The notes below the pieces were generated by a model that had not been told where the DNA came from, made no database searches, and saw only the letters and a list, made by a program, of their open reading frames with translations. From the IMG/VR virus record IMGVR_UViG_3300033067_002132, positions 64,001 to 128,000 of that record: 64,000 bases of DNA; one strand, 5' to 3'. The translations under genes and the position numbers were made by a program. Positions 5,005 through 51,805 of this stretch are shown in pieces. This DNA comes from a virus. Taxonomy: Duplodnaviria; Caudoviricetes. The first letter of the stretch is position 1, and every line of letters begins with the position of its first letter.

Positions 5005-5081
5005 GGACCTTTAGCTCAATTGGTTAGAGCGAAGCACTCATAATGCTTGGGTTATAGGTTCAAGTCCTATAAGGTCCACCA
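5005..5081 (+). tRNA. trnI: tRNA with CAT anticodon, most likely Ile2 (lysidine type)
   Basis: Perfect cloverleaf, GGACCTT/AAGGTCC acceptor typical of bacterial Ile2, loop CT-CAT-AA, ACCA end. Confidence 0.9.
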
Positions 5082-6312: not shown

Positions 6313-6436
6313 GTTAATGTAGAAAATTGGCAAATCAGGGGGTTTGTACCGAAAACAGAAATCACAGGGAAGACCGCCGATTAATGATATAGCTGTTAGA
6401 CATTAATTTATGTAGGTTCGACTCCTACCATTAACT
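6313..6436 (+). ncRNA. Class II (Leu/Ser-like) tRNA scaffold with a 25-nt anticodon loop
   Basis: GTTAATG/CATTAAC acceptor, D-loop TTGGCAAA, long variable stem ATTAATG/CATTAAT, T-arm GTAGG-TTCGACT-CCTAC. Confidence 0.75.
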
Positions 6437-13122: not shown

Positions 13123-13216
13123 GGTCCCATAGTTTAATGGTAAAACGCACGGCTTATACCCGTGATAAGCTCTAGATTTGGGCACGTTCTAGGTTCGAAT
13201 CCTAGTGGGACTACCA
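13123..13216 (+). tRNA. trnI: tRNA-Ile(TAT) with a long variable arm (94 nt)
   Basis: GGTCCCA/TGGGACT acceptor, CACGG-CT-TAT-AC-CCGTG, ~24-nt variable region, CTAGG-TTCGAAT-CCTAG, ACCA end. Confidence 0.9.
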
Positions 13217-19140: not shown

Positions 19141-19284
19141 GGCGGGGTAGTTTAATTGGTAAAATATTTTCCTTTTTTTGGTAGGCAATAGGGATCAATA
19201 TTGCCAATATCCGAAACGAAATCAAGACTGATCCTCTTGAATAAAATAAGGAAAAAGTTGCGGGTTCAAATCCCGCTCTCGTCT
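19141..19284 (+). ncRNA. tRNA scaffold with the anticodon loop replaced by a ~70-nt kissing-loop domain
   Basis: GGCGGGG/TCTCGTC acceptor, D-arm GTTT-AATTGGTA-AAAT, stem TTTTCCTT/AAGGAAAA, T-arm GCGGG-TTCAAAT-CCCGC. Promoter TTGACG 19074 / TAGGCT 19097. Confidence 0.8.
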
Positions 19285-20806: not shown

Positions 20807-21097
20807 TCGCATAACAAACTCGACTAGGCGAGTATAAATAGATAATTAAGCCTAGTGCGTTTGCGGGTAAAACCCCGCAAGGTTTATGATATTAATTATA
20901 TATTATCTCCGAATTGCAAGTGCCTTGCGCCGCGCAATTTATCCCTGAAACAACAGGGGTTAAAAGCTTCAAGCTAAAGGAAAAAAAAGCCTTCGTGCTG
21001 TCGGTGTTTGTTTCCTTCGTTGAGTGGGGCGGGGAGAGAAATCTTCCCGCCTCATTTGTTTATTGACATGCGCGGTGCATTTAGCTAATTTGATCGC

Positions 21098-38531: not shown

Positions 38532-39431
38532 ATGTCTAAAATTATTAGTTACAAATGTTCTATATTAAAAGGAACAAAAAGAATTATTAGTGCCTCACAT
38601 GTAGATTGGTCTAAAATAAGACCAGCGAGTTATTTAAAAATAAAAGGAAATCCAATTACTTTTGATATTCAAAAAATTAGAGAAAATATTTTTCTTTTTG
38701 ATTTTGAAGTAATTCATCCTAAAAAAATACAATTAAAATCACCATTTGGAGAATATTTTATTAATGATGATTTATTAGAAATCTATTTTATTCAATATGA
38801 ATTAGCTGGATTAATTTCTATAATAGATGGAGGAAGTCATTATAAAGAAAATGATATTGTATATGTAGAAGGAGGAAGCGTATCAATAGATAAGAATTTA
38901 AATAAAGAGAATTATACTTCTTTTAGAGTTTTATCTGTAGATGAAAATGGAAAAATTTTAATGTTAGGATTAGAATCTAAAGGATTATATAATATTCCAC
39001 CATCTCAAACATCTAATTTAATTCAGGGAAATGGTAAAAATGCCGTTATATCTTTAAGATATATAGAAAAAGAAAATAAATCTTTTCTTGAGCAAAATAT
39101 TAAAATAGTAGAAAGAGTTAAATTAGAAAATAAATATAATGTTTATTTACATTTAGAATATCCTCTTCCATCTGGTTTAAAAACAGGAAGTATTTCTACA
39201 AGAAAATGGGAAATTTTATTATCTCAAGAATATACTGAAGAAGATTTATTTAATGTTGATTGTGAAATTATAAATGATTTTACCCCAAATTTTAGATTAC
39301 CTATTTTATTACAAAATAGTTTATCTAAAGAAACAGTAGTAAATAAAAGTTTTACTATTATTGATTACGAATTGGCGCTCCTTAAAGATAGAATACAAAA
39401 ATTAGAAGAAAAATTATCTAGCATTAGCTAA
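38532..39431 (+). CDS. Hypothetical, probably virion-associated
   Basis: ORF track; IIDGGSHY..GLY..G.G beta motif. Confidence 0.55.
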   Translation: MSKIISYKCSILKGTKRIISASHVDWSKIRPASYLKIKGNPITFDIQKIRENIFLFDFEVIHPKKIQLKSPFGEYFINDDLLEIYFIQYELAGLISIIDGGSHYKENDIVYVEGGSVSIDKNLNKENYTSFRVLSVDENGKILMLGLESKGLYNIPPSQTSNLIQGNGKNAVISLRYIEKENKSFLEQNIKIVERVKLENKYNVYLHLEYPLPSGLKTGSISTRKWEILLSQEYTEEDLFNVDCEIINDFTPNFRLPILLQNSLSKETVVNKSFTIIDYELALLKDRIQKLEEKLSSIS

Positions 39432-42400
39432 TAATCCACCATCTTTCTTTTGTGTATTAATTACTTTTAGAACTTCTATTTGTATTAATTCTGCAATACG
39501 TTTATTTTCTTCTACTTTTTTATTTCTATTTTCCTTGCTATTATCTTGTGAATCGGTATTAGATGAAACATTAGTATTAGATGATACATTTTTTCCTTCA
39601 TCAATATTTATTTCAATATTAATATAATTATTTGTACCACCTGTCGATGTACCATCTAATTTTACTTGATTATTCGTTTGTAATGATTGTAAAGTTGTGT
39701 TAATTGAATTAGCCGCTTCTACCATTTTATTTAATGAATCAGAAAAAGAGTCCGATCCACTAGATATTCCAAAATTAGGTACGTTAGATACAGGACCACC
39801 TTCCGCATATCTATTTAATGCGCCTACATTTAATTTTTGAAAGAAATTTGCGCCATATTTTCTTACAGCAGGAGCATTAATTACATATTCTCCACCCATT
39901 AACATAGCCGGAACAGTATCTCTATGATATCCTCCATTTGCATAATGCATAGGTTTTACATAAGTTCCTTTACTTGCATATAAAGCTTTAGGATTAGGAT
40001 TATCTAAAGAAGGAACTTTATTTGGAACGCTTCCATCTATTCCTTTTATACCTTTACTAGATTGATATTGCGAATATGCTCCACCAGCAGTATTAACAGC
40101 GGCACTTATAAAAGCACCTATCATTACTTGTTCTTTTCCTCTTTTATATAATTTAAAAGCTTCGGTTTTTTGTTTTTCGTAATCTTTTTTTCCTTTAATA
40201 TAATTAAGAATATCTTGTTCTTTTTGAAAACGTCTTTGTACTGCGGGACTATCTTCATCTGTTAAAGCAAAATTTGATAAATCAGGATCAAATACGATTT
40301 TTAAACCATCTGGAGAATTAGCATTTTTTCCTTCCGCGAAAACATCATTTAATAATCTAATGTTCGCGCCATTTTGTAATTGTTTTACGCTCGTAGAAGG
40401 AATTTCTTGTTGATTAAATTTTCTTAATAAATCTGGTCCTATTGCTTGTGTTGCTTCTTTATTAATAACCACTTCACCAGGAGATAATAATGTAGCGACA
40501 TCATCTTTTACTCCTGTTCCACCAACTACAGGTCCACCAGTAGAAAAACGTTGAATTCCTGAACTTGTTACTTTTCCACCTGACGCACCTTTAGAAATAC
40601 TTCCTATTGATGATGATTTACTAAATACACCACCTAAAGCACTTTTTCCAACATCTCCGATTGCACTAAAAATATAATTAACACCAATATCTGTAGCCAT
40701 ATCTAAAGCTTTATTTGCTACATTTAAAGCAAAATCTTTTAAAGCTTCATCGGCACTTTTTGTTCCATGAATAAATTCTTTAAAGGCATCTTTAAAAGAA
40801 TCTTTCATACCCTGACCGATTTCATAAACCATATCATTCGTATCTTTTTGAAAAGATGCGAGATTATATCTCCAAGTATCAAAGAATTGCGTGCTTAAAT
40901 CTTGAGGAGTTAATTTACCTAATCTTGCTGCTAAAGTATTAGCTTCTTTAGTTGCTTGAGCAATTTCATCACCAAAAGCTGTCGTTGATTTACGTAAAGC
41001 ATCTGCTTGAACTTTTGCTTCTCTAAACGATTGTTCAATATTTTCTTTACTAATTTTATTTAAAGCGTCTAATGCTTCTTCATATTCTTTATTTAATAAT
41101 CTATTACTTTTAATTTGATCTACTAAATTAACAGCAATAATAGTTTGTATCGCCGCTTGTTTTTCTGCAACTTCCTTTCGTTTTGTTTCTAATTCTAATA
41201 GATTTTTTTGAACATTTATAGCTTCTTGAGCTTTTTGTTCAATAATTTTTGTTCTTTGAGTTTTAGGTTCGGCTTCTGCGGCTTTTTGTAATTCTTGAAC
41301 AGGACTTAATTTGTTATTTTTATTTGTTCTTTGTGTTATTTGATTTTTTTCTTTTTCTATATCAGTAGTAAATTTTAATAAATCACCAAAACCAGTAAGT
41401 TCTTCTGAACCCTTTTTAATTTCTTCATTTAATGCTTCTATTTGTTTTTTAAGAGTAGCTATTTCTGTTTGTCCTTGTGTTATACCATCTAAATTAATTA
41501 CAGTAGTATCTATTATTGATGCAGGGTCTTTTTTGTCTAAATTTGCATCAGAAGAAAAACCACCCAATAAATAATCAGTAATTGATTTATCTCCCTCTTT
41601 ATTTGTCTTTTTAAATTTATCTAATAATCCTTGTGTATTTTTTATATCTTGTTCAGTTACAGAAGATTTTCCACTTTCTATTTCTGTAGATCTATCTAAA
41701 AGATTGTTTAATGTTTTATAATCTTCAGGAAATTTTTGATTAAATGGGGTATATTTTTTATTTTGTTTTTTACCTTCTATATCACTTTCTCCGATTGATA
41801 TTAAAATTTTATCAATAACAGATTTAAAATCTTCATTAAGAGTATTTTGTCTTAAATTAATTTGTTTTCCTGTTGTATCTCTGGTTACGGTTTTAGTAGC
41901 AACATCTTTAGCAATAGCTACTTTTTCTGAATCTATTTGTGCGGATAATATCTGCGCACTTATTTCTTTAATTGTTTGTAAATTTCCCGCAACTCCTGTT
42001 TGTTCTAATGCGCTTTTATAAGCATTTTCGTTTTCATTTAAATAAGTATTAGTAAAATCAAAAATTTGTGAATTTAAAATAGCTATTAAACTATTAATAC
42101 TTGCGACATTTTCAGGAACTCTATCAAATTGAGCTAAAGATTTAACTTGAATATCGGCAATATCAGGAGCAAGAGTTTTTAATTGATCTAATGCATCTAA
42201 CTGATCTTGTGAAAACGAACCAGATAATTTAGCGGCAATTTTAGTAAAATCAATATCTTGATTTATAGAAGCAACTCTTCCTGCGGTTGCTTTTTTAAAT
42301 AAATCTTTAGGAATGTTTTCACCACGAACACCTATGAAATCTGTTAATGTTTGAATTAATTTACCAGAAAAAATTCCTGTATCTTTTGTATTTCCACCAA

Positions 42401-45400
42401 ATTTTAATCCCGCTCCTTCTGTTATTAAAGATCTAAATTGATCTAAAGAAGATCTATCTAAAAATGCTTTAATTCCACCAAATTTAGATAATTTTTCTTG
42501 TTGATCTAAAAGTTGTTTTTCATAATCATTAGAAATTTTTTGTAATTCTAATGTTTGTGATTGTAATTGTTGTACTGCTCTAATTTCATTTGCAAAATCT
42601 TGAAAATTATTTAATAATTCAATATTCGTTTTTTGTGCTTGAATTGGACTTAATCCAAAAGATGTTAATTGTTGGGCACTAATATTTGGTACAGTTTCAG
42701 GATTATTTAAAATTTGACTAATTACATCATTTAATGAATTAGTAAATGTTTTTAAATCAATCTGTGCTAACGTCGCTTTTAATTTTTCAGAAGCATCAAC
42801 AGCAGAACGTTCACCTTTAATAGATGTTTCTTGTACTCTTGCACCGGCATCTGAAAGTTCTTTTGCAAAAATAGCACCGGCTCTTTCTTGTGCTTTTGCT
42901 ACTATTTCTTGTACTGATTTTAATCCTTCAAATTTAGTTTGTAATTCTTCTGTTGCTTTTGATAATCCTAATTGTGCTTTATTAGATAAAAATGGTTCGG
43001 TTAATTTTGTTTCACCTTGTAATTTAGTTAAATTTTTAGAAACACTAAAATTCTTTTGATCTGTTTCTAATTTATTATTTACTAAAGTATTTTTTAAAGA
43101 TTGTTCTGCTAATCCAGAAAGAGAAACGGTTAATGCATTAAGATTTCTTTGAATAGTATCTGATAATATTTGGAAATTTGAATTAACTCTAACCATCGAT
43201 TTTTGAGTTTCTTCAGCAATTTTTACATATTGAGATGTTAAAGAAAGATTTTTAATAGTTTTTTCTATAATTTGAGCAAAAGCTGCCGTATCTCCAACCG
43301 CTTGATTTCCTGCTATTGATCTAAATTGATCGGTGATTTCTTTAGGAACATTTAAATAATTTTCTAAAGCAGTAATTAATGCTTCTGCTCCTGATTTTGA
43401 TCCTACCTCTAATTGTTTTGCTAAATTAACAATGATATCAGTAACATTATTTTTACCAATTTTATCTTCTAGTTTTTTAGGATCAATAGATGTAGAAAGT
43501 ATGTTTTCTATATTTTTACTATTTTTCTTAAAAGATTTATCTTTAGGATCAAAAACCTGCTTATCTAAGAATGAAGTAGCGTTTTCGAATAATTGTCTTA
43601 AACTTAATGCAGCTTTACTTATTTTTTCTTCTTTTCCTAATGCTTCCCCAATTTCCGTCATTACGATTCCTAGTTCTTTTAAACTTCCACTAGCGGCAAT
43701 AATTTGACCACGAAATTCAGGCGGAACCTCTAATAATTTAGTTATAGTATCTTTTCGAAATCTTTCTATATCTCTACTAGAAACTGAACCAGATACATCT
43801 GTTAATGCCGTTTGATATTTTTCTATTGATTGAGCGTATTGACTAATACTACTATTAAATTTATCTAATTTTTCTGAGGCATCGTTAAATGTTTTTTCTA
43901 AATCAGGTAATTGTGTAGTAAATTCTTTATATGCTTGAGAACCACCAATACCTAAACCGAATAATCCTCCCACAGCAATACCTGGAAGCCCGAATGGCGC
44001 ACCAAAAGCTGCTGTAGAACCTACCGTTCCCGCTAAGTTAGATACGGCACTTACTTTTCTTCCTGTAGATGTCTCTGTTCCCACCGCTTCACTAATTGCA
44101 CTAGTAATTACAGGAATAGCAAAACTAGCTATAGTTCCCGCACCGACTAATTTACTAAATCTTTGATTTCTAGCTTGTTCTAATTGAGCATTTAAATTAG
44201 GATCTTCATTAGCTAATGCTTGTGCTTGTTTAGAAGCTAAACTTTTTGGTCGTCCAGAAACAATACCGGAACTTTTCTTAATAATATCAGATGTTTGTTG
44301 ATTATATTGAGCTAAATTTTGTTGATAGTTATTTACATCTTTTACAGCTTTATTTAATGTAGAATCTACTGATTTCCAAACTTTTTGACTTTGAGTAATA
44401 CCCTGTACTGTTTTCTTTAATTCTGTTCTCATTTGTTGAAAAACCGGACTTTGTTTCCAATTTTCACCAAATTTTTCTACATTTAAAATTACTTCTGTAA
44501 TTGCATGATTTATTTGTTCTATTTGTTCAGGTTTAATTCCGCCGCCTTGCCCTAATTGACCAAGATTATTTTGAAAAATAGGCGCGGGATTTGTTGTATC
44601 ATATAAAGATGTTTTAGGAAAACTAGGAGGAGTAGGAATTTGAATCGTTTCCCCATTTGATAATTTTACTGATTTTGTGGCGAAATTAGGAATAAAACCA
44701 TCGGATAATTTAGTTTTTCCACCCGCATATTTTTGAGGATTAAAACCTTGGTTTTTAACCCTATTTAATCCTTGATTTAATCCTAGAGGTTCATCAAAAG
44801 AATTATAAACACCTAAACCTGTTTTATTTTGAGGACTTACTAATTTAGGACTTTTGCCTACTTTAATTCTATTTTTAGGAATTCCCGCACTTGATTCTCT
44901 TTGTATCGCGGCATTTAATGCGCCTAATGGCGGATTAATATAAGCAAAATTAGGAATAAAACCTTCACTAAAAAAAGGATTTGTTAAGTCAGAATCTTCT
45001 ATTTTTTTTCGTTTTATTTTATTAATTCTATCTAATAAATCTCCTTTTATATTAATTCTTGTTAAAAATGGCGAACCATAATCAGCAAATTTATAATCAC
45101 CGCCAGTAAAATTAATATCTCTTAAATCTTTTACTTTATCTTTTTCTATAACTGTAGGACTTCCTGTTAAAAAGGCGGGACCTAAATCTAAACCATGTCC
45201 TATTGTTTTTTTAGGAAGAATACCATTTTCTTCATCTACAGGATTATATCTTTGTGTTTTACCAAATTTTAATAAGATTTTTTTGGTGATATTTTCTAAT
45301 TTTTTAGGAATCGGTTCATCAAAAGTTGCTTCTTCTCCATCAATTATAGAATTATCAAAATTAAAAGCGTCTTGAACAGAGTAACCTTTTTTTCTTTGTG

Positions 45401-48400
45401 CTAATTTAAAACGACCAATCAGATTTCCTAAAGGACTATCTAATGGCGCACTTATAATACTATTTCCAAATTTAGATTTTCTATTTTTTTCCTTTAAATT
45501 TGCTTCTAATGTAGAATTATATCCGAGAGTAGAATGGGGAGTTGTTATATTATTAATAAATTCTTCCGCAGTATTATTAATAGTTTTTACTCCGCCGATG
45601 CCAGAAAAATAACGCGCCGCCCCTAAAAATTTTTCTCCATTTGGATCTTTTTGTATATATTTTTTATATAGTCCAACAGTGCCCGCGCCTAAAGTACCCG
45701 CAATTCTTGTAGGTAATTTTTTTAGAGTATCTTTTGGAGTCTTAAATAAATCTTTAATACCAAATGGATTTGGGCGGAATTGATTATATCCTAAAGTATA
45801 TCTATTTCCAGGAGTAACGAAATTCGGCACAAAACCTTTATTAAAAAGTGTTGTAAAATCTATACCTTCATTAAATTTAGAATCTTGTAATCTTTTTAAT
45901 ATTAATGGAGCTTTTTTATCTAAATCTTCATTAAAAGATTTTCCACCTTCTAATTCTACAGAAGGAAAAGAACTCTCCATACCAAAAGAAACTTTACTTT
46001 TTGAACCGAATTTACCACGACTTAATTGAGGAAACTTTGCTTTTAATATATCGGTAGGATGATCAGATTTTGGTTTATTAAATTGATTTAATAAAAATCC
46101 TTTAACTCCTTTATAATTTCTATTTTTTAAATCTTCTATTAATTCTTTATAAACAATAGAAGACATTCCTTTTCCTTTAAATTTTTCTTTAACGAATATG
46201 TCATCTAAAGTAGGAATTTCTTTACCTAAATCTCCAACTGTCGCCCCACCTATATCATTTTTAAAATATAACGCTTTAAAACTATCTATTCCTGAAATAG
46301 TAGATTGGCCAAAATTAGGAATAAATCCATCTGAGTTTATATTAGCGACAGTTTGTTTCGCCGCTTTAAATAATCTATTACTTAATTTTCCGATTGTACG
46401 AACTTTACGTGGGAATAATTCATTTGGTTGACGTTCAAATCCTTTTACTCCTGAATTTGTTAAAACCTCTCCTAATGCTTTTTTATCATTTAATGTAGAT
46501 TGATTAAATTCTGCTAAAATTTCTTCTAAATAATCTCCTTTTTTATAATTAGATGCAAAAAGATTTTTATATTTTGGACTATTTAATATAGTTCTTTTAG
46601 AAAGATCCATTAATTTTTTAGGACCTTTAAAAATTTCATTAGATTTATTTTCTAATAAAGATGATAAATTTTGTCCGTTTGAATCTTTAGATAAATTAAT
46701 TGCTCTATGAGAACTTTCATGTGCTAATACTTGCGCCATAGTATTAGTATCTAAATCTTTTTGAATTTCTATTGTATTATTATTATTATAAACTCCCGAA
46801 ACAGGATATTTATATCGATATTTTTTTGAAATATTATCCGTTAAACTAAAATCTTTATTTTTAATTCCTTTTAATGCTTTTCGATAACCTGAAAGAATAT
46901 TAATAGGAAGAAAATTTGGAACGAAACCGTCGTTAATATAATTATTCGATTCTAATTTTTTATCTATTTTTTTATTTATTTCTGTAGTTATAGGTGATTT
47001 TTTAGATGCTTTTACTTTTCCTGCAAACGTAATCGGTTCGGTGATTTTACTTATTCCATATCTAACTAAACTAGATATTGGAGAATTAGAATAATTTATA
47101 TATTTGTCTTTTTCTTCTATTTTAGTAAAAGCATTAATAAAAGCTTCTAATCTATTTTTAATAGGAGTTCCTTTTGCTTCTTTAAAATTTGATTTACCCT
47201 GTTTAAATGCTTCTTTTAATTTGGGTAATAAATCTTTCTTTTCTTGATCATGTAAATTAAGATCAAAAATATCACGATATTTAATATCTCTAACTGGTAA
47301 ACCTTGGTCTCGTGGAGATAAATCTAATTCTGCATTATATCCCGCCATAATATTATGATTAGCAGGATTTATTAATAATTTATTTTTATTTTTATCTAAT
47401 ACAGAAGAATTAGTATTAAAATTAGATAATTTATTATTGATAGTATATGGAATATTTCTATATGATTCCGTTCCTTTTCTAAAAGCATAAATGTTTTTTC
47501 TAGCAATATTAGGAATTCCTTTTCCTTGTTGATAAATATATTTACTTGGATCTATTCTTTGTTCTAATCCAAACATTTTTCTAAAAGCAAAATCTCTTAT
47601 TGTATGTGTTTCTTTATCAATAGGGTCTTTAATTAATTTACTTATATATGGTGTAGGTGTATCTTTTACTATTGCTTTATAATAATCTTTAAATTTTAGT
47701 CCTTTTAATTCTTTTAATTTATCTGTAAAATTATAGGAATATGGAGTTACTAAATTAGTCATAGCGCGACCTACTAATTTACTTAATCCAGGAACTAAAG
47801 CAAAATTAGGAACATGACCGTCATAATCTAAATCTTTTTTACCAGGAATAAAGCCTTGATTAAAATTAGAAATATTATTATTAGTAATATTTTTACAATA
47901 AGGATCAAAACCTAATTTTTGTTTAAATTCTTTTTGATAATTTTTACCTGCTTTACTATTTTGTGGCGGAATAATAGCCGGTTGTTCCATTCCAGGAAAT
48001 TTTTTAACTTTTTCCGCGCTATTGTAAATTACATTACCAACTTTCGGTAATGACATTTGTTTTATAGATCCGGGTGTATATCCACCCGCGTAAGCACCTA
48101 TTTTTTCTATTTTACTATTATCAGAAAAATTAGGTATAAATCCTTGCGATTTAGTTTTTTTATTTAAAACAGAAAAATCTTGATTTCCAATAGGAATATT
48201 AGAAAATTGATATCCACTTGTTCTTAATGTCGTTGCTATTTTATTAATTAATCCTAATCTATTTTGTTCAAGAGCATTTGCTTCACGTAATTTATTAATT
48301 ACAATATCTTCTGCGCTAGCAATAGTTAACGTTCCATTTCTAATTCTATCTAAAGTACCTGTTTGTTGAGATAATATTTGATTAACTCTTAATGCTAATT

Positions 48401-49787
48401 CTCCTTGTAAATTTAATTCTTTACTTGCTTGAAAAATTTTAACAATAGATTTAGCGGCAAATTCTCCTAATCTTCCTAATAATTTACCAATTAAGACAGT
48501 ACCAACGAATAAACCAGGACCAGTTAAAAACTGTCCTAAACCTTGCATAAATACTTTACCGAAACTAAAACCACTATCTTGCGCTTGATCTTCATTAATA
48601 ATTTCTATACCACTATTAAAATTTTCAAGAACATTTTTTAAATTAGGGCTAATCGCTAAATTACCAAATTTAGATCCAAATTTAGCCAAATTATTTCCCG
48701 TTTGATTTAATAAAGAACTAAGAGTTTTATTTAGTGCAGCCACACGTATTTCTGCTTCGTTTGTAGAGTCTGCTGCGGTTTTTGTTGCTAAAGAAGTTAA
48801 ATTATATTGTTTACTTAAATCAGCTAATGCCGCCGAAACAATGTTAATTTGAAATACGCCACCAGCTAATTCTTTAATTGTACTTGCCGTTCCTCTATCT
48901 ACATTTTGTATAGCATCTGAAAGTGATTGTAGCTTTTGAATACCTGTCTGGCTGGCGTCTATTTGAACTCCAAGAGCTTTTAATTGTTCAATAGAGTCAG
49001 GACGGCTTAAACGAGTAAAGATGCTCTTAAAGGCGTTACCGATGACAGCGCCACCACGAGCCGTTGTTTGTTGTACAGCGGTTACTAAACCAATTAATTG
49101 ATCTATACTAACACCCGCATCTTCAGACGTACTACCTACGCGACTAATAGCTTCCGCTAAATCAGATGCGGAAACAGCGAATTTTGAATCGACATTAGCT
49201 AATTTACTAACTAATGTTAAATCATCTAAAGAAGCTTTATTAAATGAATTAATAGCAGCGGTAATAGTATCTACGCTTTTTGCTGCATCTAATCCTGAAA
49301 TTCTTGTTAATGTTAATGCGGCTTCTGTTCTTTTTAATGTAGCTTCTAAAGTTAAACCTTGACGAGCTAATTCAAGAGCAGCGGTTGCGGTTGTATCAAA
49401 ACTTTGACCTGTTTTATTTGCTACTTCAAATAATGAACCAGCAAATTTATTAAAATCTTTTTCACTCGCATTTAAAATAACGCGAATATCTGTTAATTTC
49501 TTTTCTACTTCAATAGTAGTAGAAACTAATTCACTAAAAGCTTTTTGAATACCATAAACTAATCCGGCAGAAGCACCGAAAGCAATAACACGAGCATTAG
49601 AAGCGGCTAATGATTTATCAAAATCACTAACATTTGCACTTAATTTACCAAGAGGTTGACTAAACGAGTTAGTTCGAATTCTTAAATCAATTGGTGTATT
49701 AGCAATTCTTTGCAATTTTCCTAGAGCCTTTTCCGCGGGCGTGGTAATTGCATTTACATCTACATATACTCTACCTATACTTGGCAT
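39414..49787 (-). CDS. Tape measure protein (3457 aa) carrying cargo cassettes
   Basis: TP901-like core (ALELARQG, DLAEAISRVG, TARGGAVIGNAFKSIFTRL); C-terminal AxGG and DxVxxxLxxGE motifs; downstream of chaperones. Confidence 0.9.
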   Translation of the reverse strand: MPSIGRVYVDVNAITTPAEKALGKLQRIANTPIDLRIRTNSFSQPLGKLSANVSDFDKSLAASNARVIAFGASAGLVYGIQKAFSELVSTTIEVEKKLTDIRVILNASEKDFNKFAGSLFEVANKTGQSFDTTATAALELARQGLTLEATLKRTEAALTLTRISGLDAAKSVDTITAAINSFNKASLDDLTLVSKLANVDSKFAVSASDLAEAISRVGSTSEDAGVSIDQLIGLVTAVQQTTARGGAVIGNAFKSIFTRLSRPDSIEQLKALGVQIDASQTGIQKLQSLSDAIQNVDRGTASTIKELAGGVFQINIVSAALADLSKQYNLTSLATKTAADSTNEAEIRVAALNKTLSSLLNQTGNNLAKFGSKFGNLAISPNLKNVLENFNSGIEIINEDQAQDSGFSFGKVFMQGLGQFLTGPGLFVGTVLIGKLLGRLGEFAAKSIVKIFQASKELNLQGELALRVNQILSQQTGTLDRIRNGTLTIASAEDIVINKLREANALEQNRLGLINKIATTLRTSGYQFSNIPIGNQDFSVLNKKTKSQGFIPNFSDNSKIEKIGAYAGGYTPGSIKQMSLPKVGNVIYNSAEKVKKFPGMEQPAIIPPQNSKAGKNYQKEFKQKLGFDPYCKNITNNNISNFNQGFIPGKKDLDYDGHVPNFALVPGLSKLVGRAMTNLVTPYSYNFTDKLKELKGLKFKDYYKAIVKDTPTPYISKLIKDPIDKETHTIRDFAFRKMFGLEQRIDPSKYIYQQGKGIPNIARKNIYAFRKGTESYRNIPYTINNKLSNFNTNSSVLDKNKNKLLINPANHNIMAGYNAELDLSPRDQGLPVRDIKYRDIFDLNLHDQEKKDLLPKLKEAFKQGKSNFKEAKGTPIKNRLEAFINAFTKIEEKDKYINYSNSPISSLVRYGISKITEPITFAGKVKASKKSPITTEINKKIDKKLESNNYINDGFVPNFLPINILSGYRKALKGIKNKDFSLTDNISKKYRYKYPVSGVYNNNNTIEIQKDLDTNTMAQVLAHESSHRAINLSKDSNGQNLSSLLENKSNEIFKGPKKLMDLSKRTILNSPKYKNLFASNYKKGDYLEEILAEFNQSTLNDKKALGEVLTNSGVKGFERQPNELFPRKVRTIGKLSNRLFKAAKQTVANINSDGFIPNFGQSTISGIDSFKALYFKNDIGGATVGDLGKEIPTLDDIFVKEKFKGKGMSSIVYKELIEDLKNRNYKGVKGFLLNQFNKPKSDHPTDILKAKFPQLSRGKFGSKSKVSFGMESSFPSVELEGGKSFNEDLDKKAPLILKRLQDSKFNEGIDFTTLFNKGFVPNFVTPGNRYTLGYNQFRPNPFGIKDLFKTPKDTLKKLPTRIAGTLGAGTVGLYKKYIQKDPNGEKFLGAARYFSGIGGVKTINNTAEEFINNITTPHSTLGYNSTLEANLKEKNRKSKFGNSIISAPLDSPLGNLIGRFKLAQRKKGYSVQDAFNFDNSIIDGEEATFDEPIPKKLENITKKILLKFGKTQRYNPVDEENGILPKKTIGHGLDLGPAFLTGSPTVIEKDKVKDLRDINFTGGDYKFADYGSPFLTRINIKGDLLDRINKIKRKKIEDSDLTNPFFSEGFIPNFAYINPPLGALNAAIQRESSAGIPKNRIKVGKSPKLVSPQNKTGLGVYNSFDEPLGLNQGLNRVKNQGFNPQKYAGGKTKLSDGFIPNFATKSVKLSNGETIQIPTPPSFPKTSLYDTTNPAPIFQNNLGQLGQGGGIKPEQIEQINHAITEVILNVEKFGENWKQSPVFQQMRTELKKTVQGITQSQKVWKSVDSTLNKAVKDVNNYQQNLAQYNQQTSDIIKKSSGIVSGRPKSLASKQAQALANEDPNLNAQLEQARNQRFSKLVGAGTIASFAIPVITSAISEAVGTETSTGRKVSAVSNLAGTVGSTAAFGAPFGLPGIAVGGLFGLGIGGSQAYKEFTTQLPDLEKTFNDASEKLDKFNSSISQYAQSIEKYQTALTDVSGSVSSRDIERFRKDTITKLLEVPPEFRGQIIAASGSLKELGIVMTEIGEALGKEEKISKAALSLRQLFENATSFLDKQVFDPKDKSFKKNSKNIENILSTSIDPKKLEDKIGKNNVTDIIVNLAKQLEVGSKSGAEALITALENYLNVPKEITDQFRSIAGNQAVGDTAAFAQIIEKTIKNLSLTSQYVKIAEETQKSMVRVNSNFQILSDTIQRNLNALTVSLSGLAEQSLKNTLVNNKLETDQKNFSVSKNLTKLQGETKLTEPFLSNKAQLGLSKATEELQTKFEGLKSVQEIVAKAQERAGAIFAKELSDAGARVQETSIKGERSAVDASEKLKATLAQIDLKTFTNSLNDVISQILNNPETVPNISAQQLTSFGLSPIQAQKTNIELLNNFQDFANEIRAVQQLQSQTLELQKISNDYEKQLLDQQEKLSKFGGIKAFLDRSSLDQFRSLITEGAGLKFGGNTKDTGIFSGKLIQTLTDFIGVRGENIPKDLFKKATAGRVASINQDIDFTKIAAKLSGSFSQDQLDALDQLKTLAPDIADIQVKSLAQFDRVPENVASINSLIAILNSQIFDFTNTYLNENENAYKSALEQTGVAGNLQTIKEISAQILSAQIDSEKVAIAKDVATKTVTRDTTGKQINLRQNTLNEDFKSVIDKILISIGESDIEGKKQNKKYTPFNQKFPEDYKTLNNLLDRSTEIESGKSSVTEQDIKNTQGLLDKFKKTNKEGDKSITDYLLGGFSSDANLDKKDPASIIDTTVINLDGITQGQTEIATLKKQIEALNEEIKKGSEELTGFGDLLKFTTDIEKEKNQITQRTNKNNKLSPVQELQKAAEAEPKTQRTKIIEQKAQEAINVQKNLLELETKRKEVAEKQAAIQTIIAVNLVDQIKSNRLLNKEYEEALDALNKISKENIEQSFREAKVQADALRKSTTAFGDEIAQATKEANTLAARLGKLTPQDLSTQFFDTWRYNLASFQKDTNDMVYEIGQGMKDSFKDAFKEFIHGTKSADEALKDFALNVANKALDMATDIGVNYIFSAIGDVGKSALGGVFSKSSSIGSISKGASGGKVTSSGIQRFSTGGPVVGGTGVKDDVATLLSPGEVVINKEATQAIGPDLLRKFNQQEIPSTSVKQLQNGANIRLLNDVFAEGKNANSPDGLKIVFDPDLSNFALTDEDSPAVQRRFQKEQDILNYIKGKKDYEKQKTEAFKLYKRGKEQVMIGAFISAAVNTAGGAYSQYQSSKGIKGIDGSVPNKVPSLDNPNPKALYASKGTYVKPMHYANGGYHRDTVPAMLMGGEYVINAPAVRKYGANFFQKLNVGALNRYAEGGPVSNVPNFGISSGSDSFSDSLNKMVEAANSINTTLQSLQTNNQVKLDGTSTGGTNNYINIEINIDEGKNVSSNTNVSSNTDSQDNSKENRNKKVEENKRIAELIQIEVLKVINTQKKDGGLLANAR

Positions 49788-49817: not shown

Positions 49818-50828
49818 TTAAGCACCTTGGAGTCTAATCATATCATCTATACTTAAACTTCCGCCTTTTTTCTGAGCTTCTTTTATAATATTATTAGATA
49901 AATTAGCACCCGAACTATCCATACCCATAGCTTTTAGATCTTCTTTGGTTGCCCCCACCAAAGAAGACGCCACAAAATCTTTATCTTTTTTATTAGTTTT
50001 AGATAATAAATCTTCTGCTTGTTGACTTGAATCATACCATTCTAATAGTTTTTCAGGATCTTGCATTAAATCATCTGGTACTTTATTTTTCGAATTAATT
50101 AAAATATTCTTAAAAGTTTTAGCATATTCAAAAACCTGTGTTTGATAAAAAGTGAGATGAATTACCGCTTTTCCATAAAAAGTATATGGATTATCATCTG
50201 CTATTATAAAAAGATTCATATACGCGGGCGAGAGAGCAACACATTTTAAATTTTTAACAGAAAAATTTTCTATATATTTTTCATGCTCATTATATAATTT
50301 ATTTAATTGTTCGTCTTCTAATTCATCGTATTCTTCTTCATTATATAAAGAATTTATTAAATTAATATCTTTATATAACATATGTTTCATATAATGTTCA
50401 TTTATTTTTTTATTAGCATATGTTTCAGCGGTTAAACCGATTAAATCTGTTTTTTTACTATTTAAAATTTCGACATCATTAGTAACATCTTTAATTTGTT
50501 TATCTATAATATCTTTTTCTCTTTTTTTAAATATTTTTGAACGAGTAGTTTTTAATCTTATTAATAAATCGTTTGATTCGGATAATTTTTTTTCTTCATC
50601 TTTTGTCCATTGATTATTTTCTATTAAAAGTTTTTCTTTTGTTTCTTTGTTAGGTAATCCTTTACTAATAGCTTTTTCTAAATTTAATGTATATATTTCA
50701 TCTATAAAAGCCGAATCAAAAGGTCCAAAATGTTTGAAATATAAAATGCCAAAATCAGAAGACACAATTTTAGTGTATCCTCTGATTATATCAGCAAACA
50801 AATTTTTAATTTTTGAATTAGTCGTCAA
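49818..50828 (-). CDS. Tail assembly chaperone-like protein
   Basis: Position directly before the TMP. Confidence 0.55.
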   Translation of the reverse strand: MTTNSKIKNLFADIIRGYTKIVSSDFGILYFKHFGPFDSAFIDEIYTLNLEKAISKGLPNKETKEKLLIENNQWTKDEEKKLSESNDLLIRLKTTRSKIFKKREKDIIDKQIKDVTNDVEILNSKKTDLIGLTAETYANKKINEHYMKHMLYKDINLINSLYNEEEYDELEDEQLNKLYNEHEKYIENFSVKNLKCVALSPAYMNLFIIADDNPYTFYGKAVIHLTFYQTQVFEYAKTFKNILINSKNKVPDDLMQDPEKLLEWYDSSQQAEDLLSKTNKKDKDFVASSLVGATKEDLKAMGMDSSGANLSNNIIKEAQKKGGSLSIDDMIRLQGA

Positions 50829-51558
50829 GATCGTTAGAAATGTTATCTATATTTTTAAAATCTTCTTCTGTAACAGCACGTCCCGTATACCAAAAACTAA
50901 CTAAAAAGAATAATTTTTTAATAACTAATTTAGTAAAATTATCATCAGATTCATCTAATTCATCATATTTTTTAATTTTATCTTCAAATGTTCCTTCACC
51001 AAAAAATAGAGATTCACTATTATCTGGATTAATTTTATATGAAAGATTTAATATATACCAAAGAATAGTTTTATTTCTTGCTATATTTTCGGCGGTTTGA
51101 CTAAATAAAGATTCTTGTTGTAATTCAAATTTTTGTAATTCATTTCTTATATCACCTAATTCATTTAAAATTGCGATTGCGCGTTCTTCTTGTTCTTTAT
51201 TTCTTTCTTTTTGCGCAAGTAATTGAAATTCTATTTGTAATTTATTAGAATCTTGTCTAAACTTTTCTAATTTTTCTTTTTCAGGTTTGCTTAAAATGCC
51301 CCCGTCATCAAGAAATCTTTTATATAATTGAGAAGATGTTAATAATCCTGCTTTAATACCATTCGCTACATTAACTGCGTGAAATAATTCCGCGTCATCT
51401 ATTAATGATCTATTTGGTTTTCTAATAAAAAAAGAAACAGGAACTTGAATTGTCGTCGGTTTTTCTATTTTAACCGTTTCGCCTTTTTCATTTTTTGATT
51501 CTTCTATTTCTATTTTTGTTTCTTCTTTATTAACACTAAATTGATATATTTTTTTCAT
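50818..51558 (-). CDS. Tail assembly chaperone-like protein (start corrected)
   Basis: Between tail tube and TMP; acidic and helical. Confidence 0.55.
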   Translation of the reverse strand: MKKIYQFSVNKEETKIEIEESKNEKGETVKIEKPTTIQVPVSFFIRKPNRSLIDDAELFHAVNVANGIKAGLLTSSQLYKRFLDDGGILSKPEKEKLEKFRQDSNKLQIEFQLLAQKERNKEQEERAIAILNELGDIRNELQKFELQQESLFSQTAENIARNKTILWYILNLSYKINPDNSESLFFGEGTFEDKIKKYDELDESDDNFTKLVIKKLFFLVSFWYTGRAVTEEDFKNIDNISNDLDD

Positions 51559-51565
51559 TTTATTC

Positions 51566-51805
51566 TTAATCCTTTTTATTATCAATTAATTTGATAAAAT
51601 TATCTAAAGTTTCTTCTAATTCTCTAATAGAATCATTTCCATTATCTAAGATTCTTTTTCTAATTATTTGATAATCTAAATCATTAATTTGACCTTTAAT
51701 TTTTAAATCTTCCGCAGAAGATAAAAAATTTTTATATAAATTTGTGATAGATCGACGAAATTGAAACTTTAAAAGTTCCATTAAAGATGCGTTATTAATC
51801 TCCAT
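51566..51805 (-). CDS. Small hypothetical protein
   Basis: ORF track; GTGTAA promoter at 51835. Confidence 0.7.
   Translation of the reverse strand: MEINNASLMELLKFQFRRSITNLYKNFLSSAEDLKIKGQINDLDYQIIRKRILDNGNDSIRELEETLDNFIKLIDNKKD

Follow-up and report, generated by a model that had tools for sequence, protein, structure and literature searches.

The 64,000-nucleotide stretch of viral DNA considered here (the window; positions 64,001 to 128,000 of IMG/VR record IMGVR_UViG_3300033067_002132, Duplodnaviria, Caudoviricetes) encodes a tape measure protein (TMP) of 3457 residues, P0001, in which a short peptide of the form G(F/H)(I/V)PNF punctuates a series of discrete modules. Comparison with related proteins shows that these modules, or cassettes, are independent units which have been gained, lost, replaced and moved horizontally between divergent TMP backbones, with their borders at the motif. 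The motif is under selection at the level of the peptide; it is placed in flexible linkers between domains and occurs in TMPs alone. The explanation we favour, albeit with a little less than even confidence, is that the TMP carries a modular array of cargo in which the motif serves as a processing signal. P0001 is a TP901-type TMP of an uncultivated tailed phage of ~194 kb. It matches PF10145 (PhageMin_Tail) over aa 123–303 with 80.9 bits against a cut-off of 33.2 (E=1.5e-22) and is also matched by 12 PHROG tape-measure families. The source is one contig of 193,745 bp with a G+C content of about 28%, and is thus a large phage genome rather than a bacterial chromosome.

A preliminary description of this DNA had reported seven copies of the motif together with a half motif, GFIPG, on the C-terminal side of a TP901-like core. 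A regular-expression scan of the translation recovers all eight elements (Table 1), the core lies N-terminal to the modules as described, and the module sizes are those proposed: 108 (96 + 12), 297, 200, 164, 291 and 88 aa. From the composition of P0001, only 0.0002 copies of G[FH][IV]PNF would be expected by chance. A six-frame scan of the whole 193,745-bp genome found no copy outside P0001, which excludes an intragenomic reservoir of cassettes. The same exclusivity is seen across 1.44 Mb of sequence from 80 related loci, where 335 copies fall within TMP open reading frames (ORFs) and none outside them.

Alignment of 695 unique 30-residue contexts extends the motif to about ten residues, [AK][SA]xG[FLYH][IV]PN[FY][AS], with the information confined to positions -3 to +6 and close to zero beyond. 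The core positions are set in part by the search pattern, as a result of which the glycine and proline are found in 100% of contexts, and the flanking positions are free of it; the asparagine is present in 96%, and positions -3, -2 and +6 are also conserved. Within the window gene the seven copies are written with differing synonymous codons, and the sole DNA repeat at the junctions is a coding core of ~18 nt with 70–83% identity. Near-invariant residues written in synonymous codons that change even from copy to copy of a single gene are the mark of purifying selection on the peptide. The earlier suggestion that the motif might be a recombination signal is disfavoured at the level of DNA, because of the synonymous variation and the lack of any repeat beyond the ~18 coding bases. 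A related idea is that the motif has no function as a peptide and is simply an in-frame trace of array building by microhomology-mediated recombination. Each cassette does have the ~18-nt coding repeat on both sides, in the manner of a duplicated target, and a split motif at one junction of the window array, GFIP-(12 aa)-GHVPNF, resembles an imprecise join. Near-invariance of the residues over 695 contexts in highly diverged proteins, encoded by synonymously variable codons, nevertheless largely refutes this notion, and we regard it as very improbable.

The arrangement in P0001 is one instance of a plan shared by a large family. A search with P0001 aa 540–1760 retrieved 458 long TMPs that match the array region, and 121 TMPs analysed contain 544 copies of G[FLHY][IV]PN[FY]. 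When these 121 proteins were cut at the motifs and the pieces clustered by BLASTP, a fixed frame became apparent: a core of ~540 aa, a small bracket domain (c1, ~85 aa), a variable set of cassettes, a second bracket domain (c0, ~75 aa) and a rod, with the motif at every junction. The first motif stands at a median position of aa 539 across 120 proteins. In 92/121 proteins the array is minimal, with a single cassette of about 240–320 aa between c1 and c0; this basal cassette is of type c2, c4 or c18, which are distantly related to one another (hhalign 83–97%). The number of variable cassettes per array ranges from 1 to about 19, and the expanded arrays include those of P0009, P0032 and P0088, with 10–11 modules each, and P0047, with 20. 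The preliminary description had asked whether cassette number and identity vary among relatives while the motif and two small flanking modules stay fixed, and among the relatives compared this is what is found.

The same plan was recognised in 346 IMG/VR contigs by an alignment-based scan; a single-sequence query of the IMG/VR loci gave no match, so that an alignment query was needed. In the 80 of these contigs that were fetched, the first motif lies at ~aa 540, the spacings are mostly near 82, 270 and 73 aa, and there are up to 11 motifs. None of 50,697 GenBank phages was matched in tblastn searches whose queries were the array, its basal form and c1, and among the genomes of 185,579 species only seven contigs binned into metagenome-assembled genomes match, 3/7 of them Flavobacteriales. 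The lineage is seen in metagenomes only, in contigs of up to about 205–222 kb, and the closest relatives, P0002–4, come from Logan and ENA assemblies. Two apparent gene splits in the family were set aside. P0138 ends exactly in GFVPNF, and this proved to be an assembly artefact (0.41x coverage, with the contig shattered into tiny ORFs); the split in P0122 lies inside a cassette rather than at a motif and looks like a frameshift.

The exchange of cassettes is seen most directly in pairwise comparisons. P0001 and its closest relative, P0002, whose cores are 59% identical, share homology blocks corresponding to residues 1–648, 953–1159 and 1316–3457 of P0001, and the edges of these blocks fall on the motifs at 645/657, 954, 1154 and 1318. 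Cassette c12 of the window array is thus an insertion, and c13 stands in place of two c7 cassettes. P0002 and P0003 are 82–85% identical, and a cassette of 222 aa in one is replaced by an unrelated one of 479 aa in the other, with homology resuming exactly at the next motif (1269/1527). Cassette c16 provides a case of transfer between distant backbones. It is 84% identical between P0009 and either P0088 or P0032, proteins whose cores are 52–56% and rods 31–33% identical; the block of high identity is bounded by motifs at both ends, with a different set of neighbours in each protein. A motif-bounded block of such identity on diverged backbones and beside different neighbours indicates horizontal transfer of a single cassette. 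The claim that the motif delimits discrete, swappable modules is thus borne out by homology breakpoints between relatives.

In the window the order is core, c1, c12, c9, c13, c8, c0 and rod, with the motif at each junction. The best conserved part of the array is c1, which is 52–68% identical to its counterparts in 48 relatives; of its alignment columns, 25 are invariant among 49 sequences, including Y-N-S-A-E and Q-P-A-I-M-P-P, and no other stretch of the TMP family as a whole is so well conserved. Conservation is higher in c1 and c0 than in the cassettes; the two are found essentially only in TMPs and are weak paralogues of one another (hhalign 90% probability over 43 columns). The split motif mentioned above stands at the junction of c1 and c12, where relatives have a single GFIPNF. 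Cassette c12 is missing from the closest relatives, P0002–4, and has homologues in the TMPs P0008 and P0127–P0131; small proteins that lack the motif share its first ~125 aa. Cassette c8 is common to P0002–6, P0015, P0123 and P0126. A shared core of c8 and c12, the two cassettes of ~290 aa, was considered and rejected (hhalign 1.2% probability).

Structure prediction places the motifs between folded blocks. AlphaFold2 (AF2) models were made of the basal array, from an alignment of 45 sequences, and of window aa 1300–1740; MAFFT alignments A1 and A3–A9, intended for models of the whole array or of c9 with c13, were discarded, as the repeated motif and partial rows had misplaced cassettes. In the basal array (mean predicted local distance difference test score, pLDDT, 62) all four motifs are modelled as coil with pLDDT below 50, between blocks formed by c1 (residues 33–99), the cassette (114–382) and c0 (403–464). 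The homologous c1 is modelled as a helix, four strands and a helix with pLDDT 63–72. In the window model c0 reaches pLDDT 71–82 for aa ~1620–1680, with its flanking motifs in coil, and c8 gives no confident fold (pLDDT below 50). Wherever the models are confident, that is in the basal array and in window c0, predicted domain boundaries coincide with the motifs, in keeping with the preliminary description. Fold searches with the basal c1–c2–c0 model (Foldseek against PDB, VIA-align wide, BFVD and the ESM Atlas) returned generic helix matches only, and an ESM Atlas feature search with c8 and c12 gave nothing above 0.81.

These observations bear on the possibility that the motif is never cut and is a structural joint or docking peptide, through which a common partner would order the array during tail assembly and ejection. 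Such a partner might be a tail assembly chaperone or the lumen of the tube; it might also be the bracket domains or the two remaining TMP chains. The motif is indeed sharply bounded and sits in a linker, like a peptide ligand; its confinement to TMPs is as expected of a partner inside the tail; the bracket domains are more conserved than the cassettes; no protease was found in basal forms; and the motif is present at the core/c1 and c0/rod junctions, where there is no cargo to release. The AF2 monomer models, on the other hand, leave the motifs as low-scoring coil rather than packing them on the domains, and their irregular spacing, from 65 to 600 aa, fits no periodic component of the tail. 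A predicted complex of c1 with c0 scored 0.01, which counts neither for nor against a clasp of the two that loops out the array. We consider docking somewhat unlikely, albeit a serious competitor.

As to the identity of the cargo, the preliminary description had taken two window cassettes to carry recognisable enzyme motifs. Motif-level residues are conserved in both; family matches are only sub-threshold, and searches of profiles against PDB sequences found nothing, so that these cassettes are no more than candidate zincin and GNAT enzymes. In c9, H64, E65, H68 and E129/E130 (HESSH with a downstream YLEE) are invariant in three sequences. The match to Peptidase_M78 has E=0.19, one homologue matches DUF6782 with E=0.029, and the c9 profile found no peptidase among PDB sequences; c9 is a candidate gluzincin. 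In c13, G46 and G48 are invariant in five sequences and are followed by a conserved amphipathic stretch, a resemblance to GNAT motif A, which has the form Q/R-x-x-G-x-G/A with a helix after it, and nothing closer. Its match to GNAT PF00583 has E=0.021 and 15.5 bits against a cut-off of 20.7, only the window copy among five homologues matches Pfam GNAT, and the c13 profile found no acetyltransferase among PDB sequences, where the best GNAT has E 2.8; c13 is a candidate GNAT. An exhaustive HMMER search of the four window cassettes against 1.84 billion representatives found only 19 proteins, mostly TMPs.

Relatives are more informative in this respect. The relative L036 carries an SNase domain above the Pfam cut-off, and L017 a borderline GNAT. 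Pfam domains in relatives each lie inside one cassette: an SNase at 116–210 within 86–276, a GNAT at 933–964 within 872–1023, and a PGDYG domain at 1604–1704 within 1523–1709. ART-PolyVal (PF18760) was detected in the relative P0008, an assignment at the level of the whole protein. The basal cassette c2/c4, of ~270 aa (for example L001:1557-3149), has an invariant G..FE and a conserved FD...E...ADAK, residues reminiscent of the signature of PD-(D/E)xK nucleases, though searches by sequence and by fold gave no confirmation.

Alternatively, the cassettes might act on the envelope or be structural, serving in penetration of the wall or membrane or in contacts with a receptor or the periplasm, with the motif merely separating them. 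TMPs with embedded wall-degrading domains are established, as in mycobacteriophage TM4 and T5 pb2, and most cassettes here, including the near-universal c2/c4/c18, match no effector family, whilst c1 and c0 occur only in TMPs. Set against this, the arrays scanned contained no family of lysozymes, transglycosylases or peptidoglycan peptidases, and the cassettes which can be annotated are nuclease, acetyltransferase-like and ADP-ribosyltransferase, whose substrates are intracellular. An envelope role for the cassettes seems improbable to us.

The favoured alternative remains a cargo array with the motif as processing signal. TMPs are expelled from the tail ahead of the DNA in other siphophages, so that the array may be cargo delivered at infection. 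Lying between the N-terminal core and the helical, membrane-active rod, it would form a cargo rack carried by the TMP, and departure of the TMP from the tail ahead of the DNA would place enzyme or binding modules in the host envelope or cytoplasm before phage gene expression. The polyprotein would then be cut into its modules at the motif. A processing site is the simplest role for the peptide, since a signal is needed at every junction. Cutting might be carried out by a dedicated or host protease, or might be an Asn-dependent self-cleavage at the near-invariant P-N|F; the latter is suggested by the presence of an asparagine in 96% of contexts after the proline, and Asn-mediated self-cleavage is known in some capsid and secretion-system proteins. 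Function of a new cassette would then depend on its being joined at a motif, and this would account for the motif-exact borders of the recombinants that are seen. Processing of TMPs is known in other phages. Cleavage at the motif is argued only by analogy with this and with the polyvalent proteins, which have been proposed to be cut into units (PMC5512222). Taken separately, the proposal that the motif is a cleavage site is a tentative one, to which we would give appreciably less than even weight and only slightly more than to docking. A bolder and rather unlikely reading is that the junction peptide is a self-contained Asn-dependent cleavage module and the TMP a programmable polyprotein for the delivery of multiple effectors, whose cassettes are traded horizontally. 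On this reading the TMP would be the phage equivalent of a MARTX toxin, and whatever domain came to lie between two motifs would be packed into the tail, expelled before the DNA and set free inside the host.

Several observations weigh against cargo delivery and processing at the motif. No recognisable peptidase was found in the basal forms of the array (c1, c2 or c4, c0). The candidate peptidase c9 cannot be a general processing enzyme, because its HExxH part has been lost in P0004. This protein (locus L083) is 98% identical to P0002 (locus L081) up to aa 681 and 85% identical in a second aligned block, and lacks P0002 residues 682–805; that phage can therefore do without the candidate peptidase, or is in the course of losing it. 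The motif is found also at the core/c1 and c0/rod junctions, where cutting would part the core from the ruler. The enzyme assignments in the window are sub-threshold, and family, Atlas and fold searches gave no match for c8, c12 or the basal cassette. Finally, folded modules of 30 kDa in three copies would be hard to fit into a tail lumen that we estimate at ~4 nm across; three copies of ~1150 non-helical residues would, by our estimate, occupy roughly 40–80 nm of a 4-nm lumen, and that only if stacked serially or unfolded.

Table 1. Parts of the tape measure gene and its upstream neighbours, in window coordinates (aa, residues of P0001)
Feature	Coordinates	Strand	Remarks
TMP ORF P0001	39414..49787	-	3457 aa; PF10145 and 12 PHROG TMP families
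TP901-type TMP core	48879..49421	-	PF10145, aa 123-303; conserved N-terminal block extends to about aa 540
Junction motif 1, GFIPNF, core/c1	48126..48143	-	aa 549
Bracket domain c1	47820..48125	-	aa 555-656; ends in split motif
Half motif GFIPG	47841..47855	-	aa 645; first half of the split junction where c12 entered
Junction motif 2, GHVPNF	47802..47819	-	aa 657
Cassette c12	46929..47801	-	aa 663-953; no Pfam or Atlas lead
Junction motif 3, GFVPNF	46911..46928	-	aa 954
Cassette c9, candidate gluzincin	46329..46910	-	aa 960-1153; HESSH and downstream YLEE
Junction motif 4, GFIPNF	46311..46328	-	aa 1154
Cassette c13, candidate GNAT	45837..46310	-	aa 1160-1317; GxG and helix resembling motif A
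Junction motif 5, GFVPNF	45819..45836	-	aa 1318
Cassette c8	44964..45818	-	aa 1324-1608
Junction motif 6, GFIPNF	44946..44963	-	aa 1609
Bracket domain c0	44700..44945	-	aa 1615-1696; distant c1 paralogue
Junction motif 7, GFIPNF, c0/rod	44682..44699	-	aa 1697
Post-array TMP	39414..44681	-	helix-rich rod; read from translation and composition shift
Two overlapping ORFs, from putative tube gene to TMP	49818..51585	-	255 aa, then frame open for 336 aa

The residues G, P, N, Y and F are more frequent in aa 549–1702 of P0001 than in the rod which follows; past aa 1800 the protein is rich in helix-forming residues, as judged by residue composition alone. The rod has Gly-rich hydrophobic segments at ~aa 1925–1995, a match to phrog_37649 at aa 2940–3126 and C-terminal [FY]-x-x-GG motifs typical of TMPs. 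A lone VPNF near the C-terminus (window 39777–39788, minus strand; aa 3334–3337) occurs in the context R-Y-A-E-G-G-P-V-S-N-V-P-N-F and looks like a fusion of the junction motif with the [FY]-A-x-G-G motif that TMPs usually have at the C-terminus; among 121 relatives only P0001 has it, and it was rejected as a feature of the family.

The gene order around the TMP is a 385-aa ORF, which is the putative tube gene, two overlapping ORFs, the TMP and then convergent genes, and it is the same in the relative locus L081. PHROG matched 0/10 of the genes neighbouring P0001. From their position, the overlapping ORFs are candidate G/GT tail assembly chaperones and hence candidate partners of the TMP. The 255-aa ORF stops 11 nt inside the 336-aa open frame, directly upstream of the TMP, and a T-TTT-AAA-AAT run lies ~35 nt upstream of this stop; in L081 the second gene is called at 169 aa only, leaving about 520 nt uncalled. 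This layout is compatible with a frameshifted tail assembly chaperone of the G/GT type. Elsewhere in the window, a G+C-rich island at 14–24 kb (G+C 0.41–0.51, compared with about 0.28 elsewhere) contains a full-length Pistol ribozyme at 20818–20887 on the plus strand (RF02679, 68.6 bits against a gathering score of 34.5). Three tRNA matches on the plus strand are overlong, at 19141–19284 (144 nt), 6313–6436 (124 nt) and 13123–13216 (94 nt), which suggests that these tRNA genes are interrupted or carry introns; the ARAGORN calls are limited to tRNA-Met (5005–5081) and tRNA-Ile(tat).

TMPs have been treated mainly as rulers and channel formers. The family described here suggests that in a large, environmentally widespread and entirely uncultivated group of phages the TMP serves as a carrier that can be expanded to hold as many as about 19 exchangeable modules. 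Should these modules be delivered to the host and set free there, the phages would have a new way of striking first with proteins directed against the host or its defences, and the arrays would offer a rich source of new effector domains and a natural plug-in site for the engineering of protein-delivering phages. The storage of more than 1000 non-helical residues per chain in a tail is a physical puzzle in its own right.

A number of parallels can be drawn with known systems. The nearest are TP901-family TMPs with enzyme motifs, such as the peptidoglycan-hydrolase motifs of mycobacteriophage TMPs, and T5 pb2 with its C-terminal peptidase, which resemble P0001 in the PF10145 core, probably in the position of the gene and in the proposed carriage of an extra activity into the host. 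By contrast, known TMPs have one or a few wall-degrading motifs, and here there are 3 to 20 modules at a fixed site with no wall hydrolase detected; two bracket domains, one conserved junction peptide and horizontal exchange at the level of the cassette also set the present family apart. The MARTX toxins of Vibrio and its relatives are likewise mosaics of effector domains, varied by recombination and freed after delivery by cleavage in unstructured linkers. They are, however, secreted bacterial toxins with an in-built cysteine protease which cuts after Leu, whereas here the carrier is a phage tail protein and cleavage is putative. In polymorphic toxins, pre-toxin motifs (VENN in CdiA, PxxxxDPxGL in Rhs) border the constant carrier and the swappable cargo, and in Rhs autoproteolysis takes place there. 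Such motifs coincide with recombination breakpoints, as does the junction motif described here. Polymorphic toxins have one C-terminal cassette together with genomic orphans, in contrast to the many serial internal cassettes and the absence of orphans in the present genome.

Polyvalent proteins are giant, multi-domain proteins thought to enter the host with the DNA and include nucleases, ADP-ribosyltransferases (ARTs), GNATs and a zincin (MPTase) amongst their domains (Iyer et al. 2017; PMC5512222). A connection to the present family is the ART-PolyVal domain of the relative P0008; P0001 itself matches none of the polyvalent-protein domain families at threshold. The paper on polyvalent proteins mentions neither TMPs nor a conserved junction motif (PMC5512222). 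Sle1, from the contractile injection systems of actinobacteria, combines a TMP-like scaffold with an exchangeable functional domain in a tail-like particle (PMC13277306). Sle1 has a single C-terminal functional domain and belongs to a contractile system, and in the part of that report drawn on here no repeated junction motif is described, unlike in P0001 (PMC13277306). The motif strings themselves had no match in the TMP literature searched, the single text match being to an unrelated paper on human-serum proteomics. Neither the family of the carrier nor the notion of cargo embedded in it is new; what is new is an array that is punctuated by a motif, bracketed by two constant domains and shuffled horizontally.

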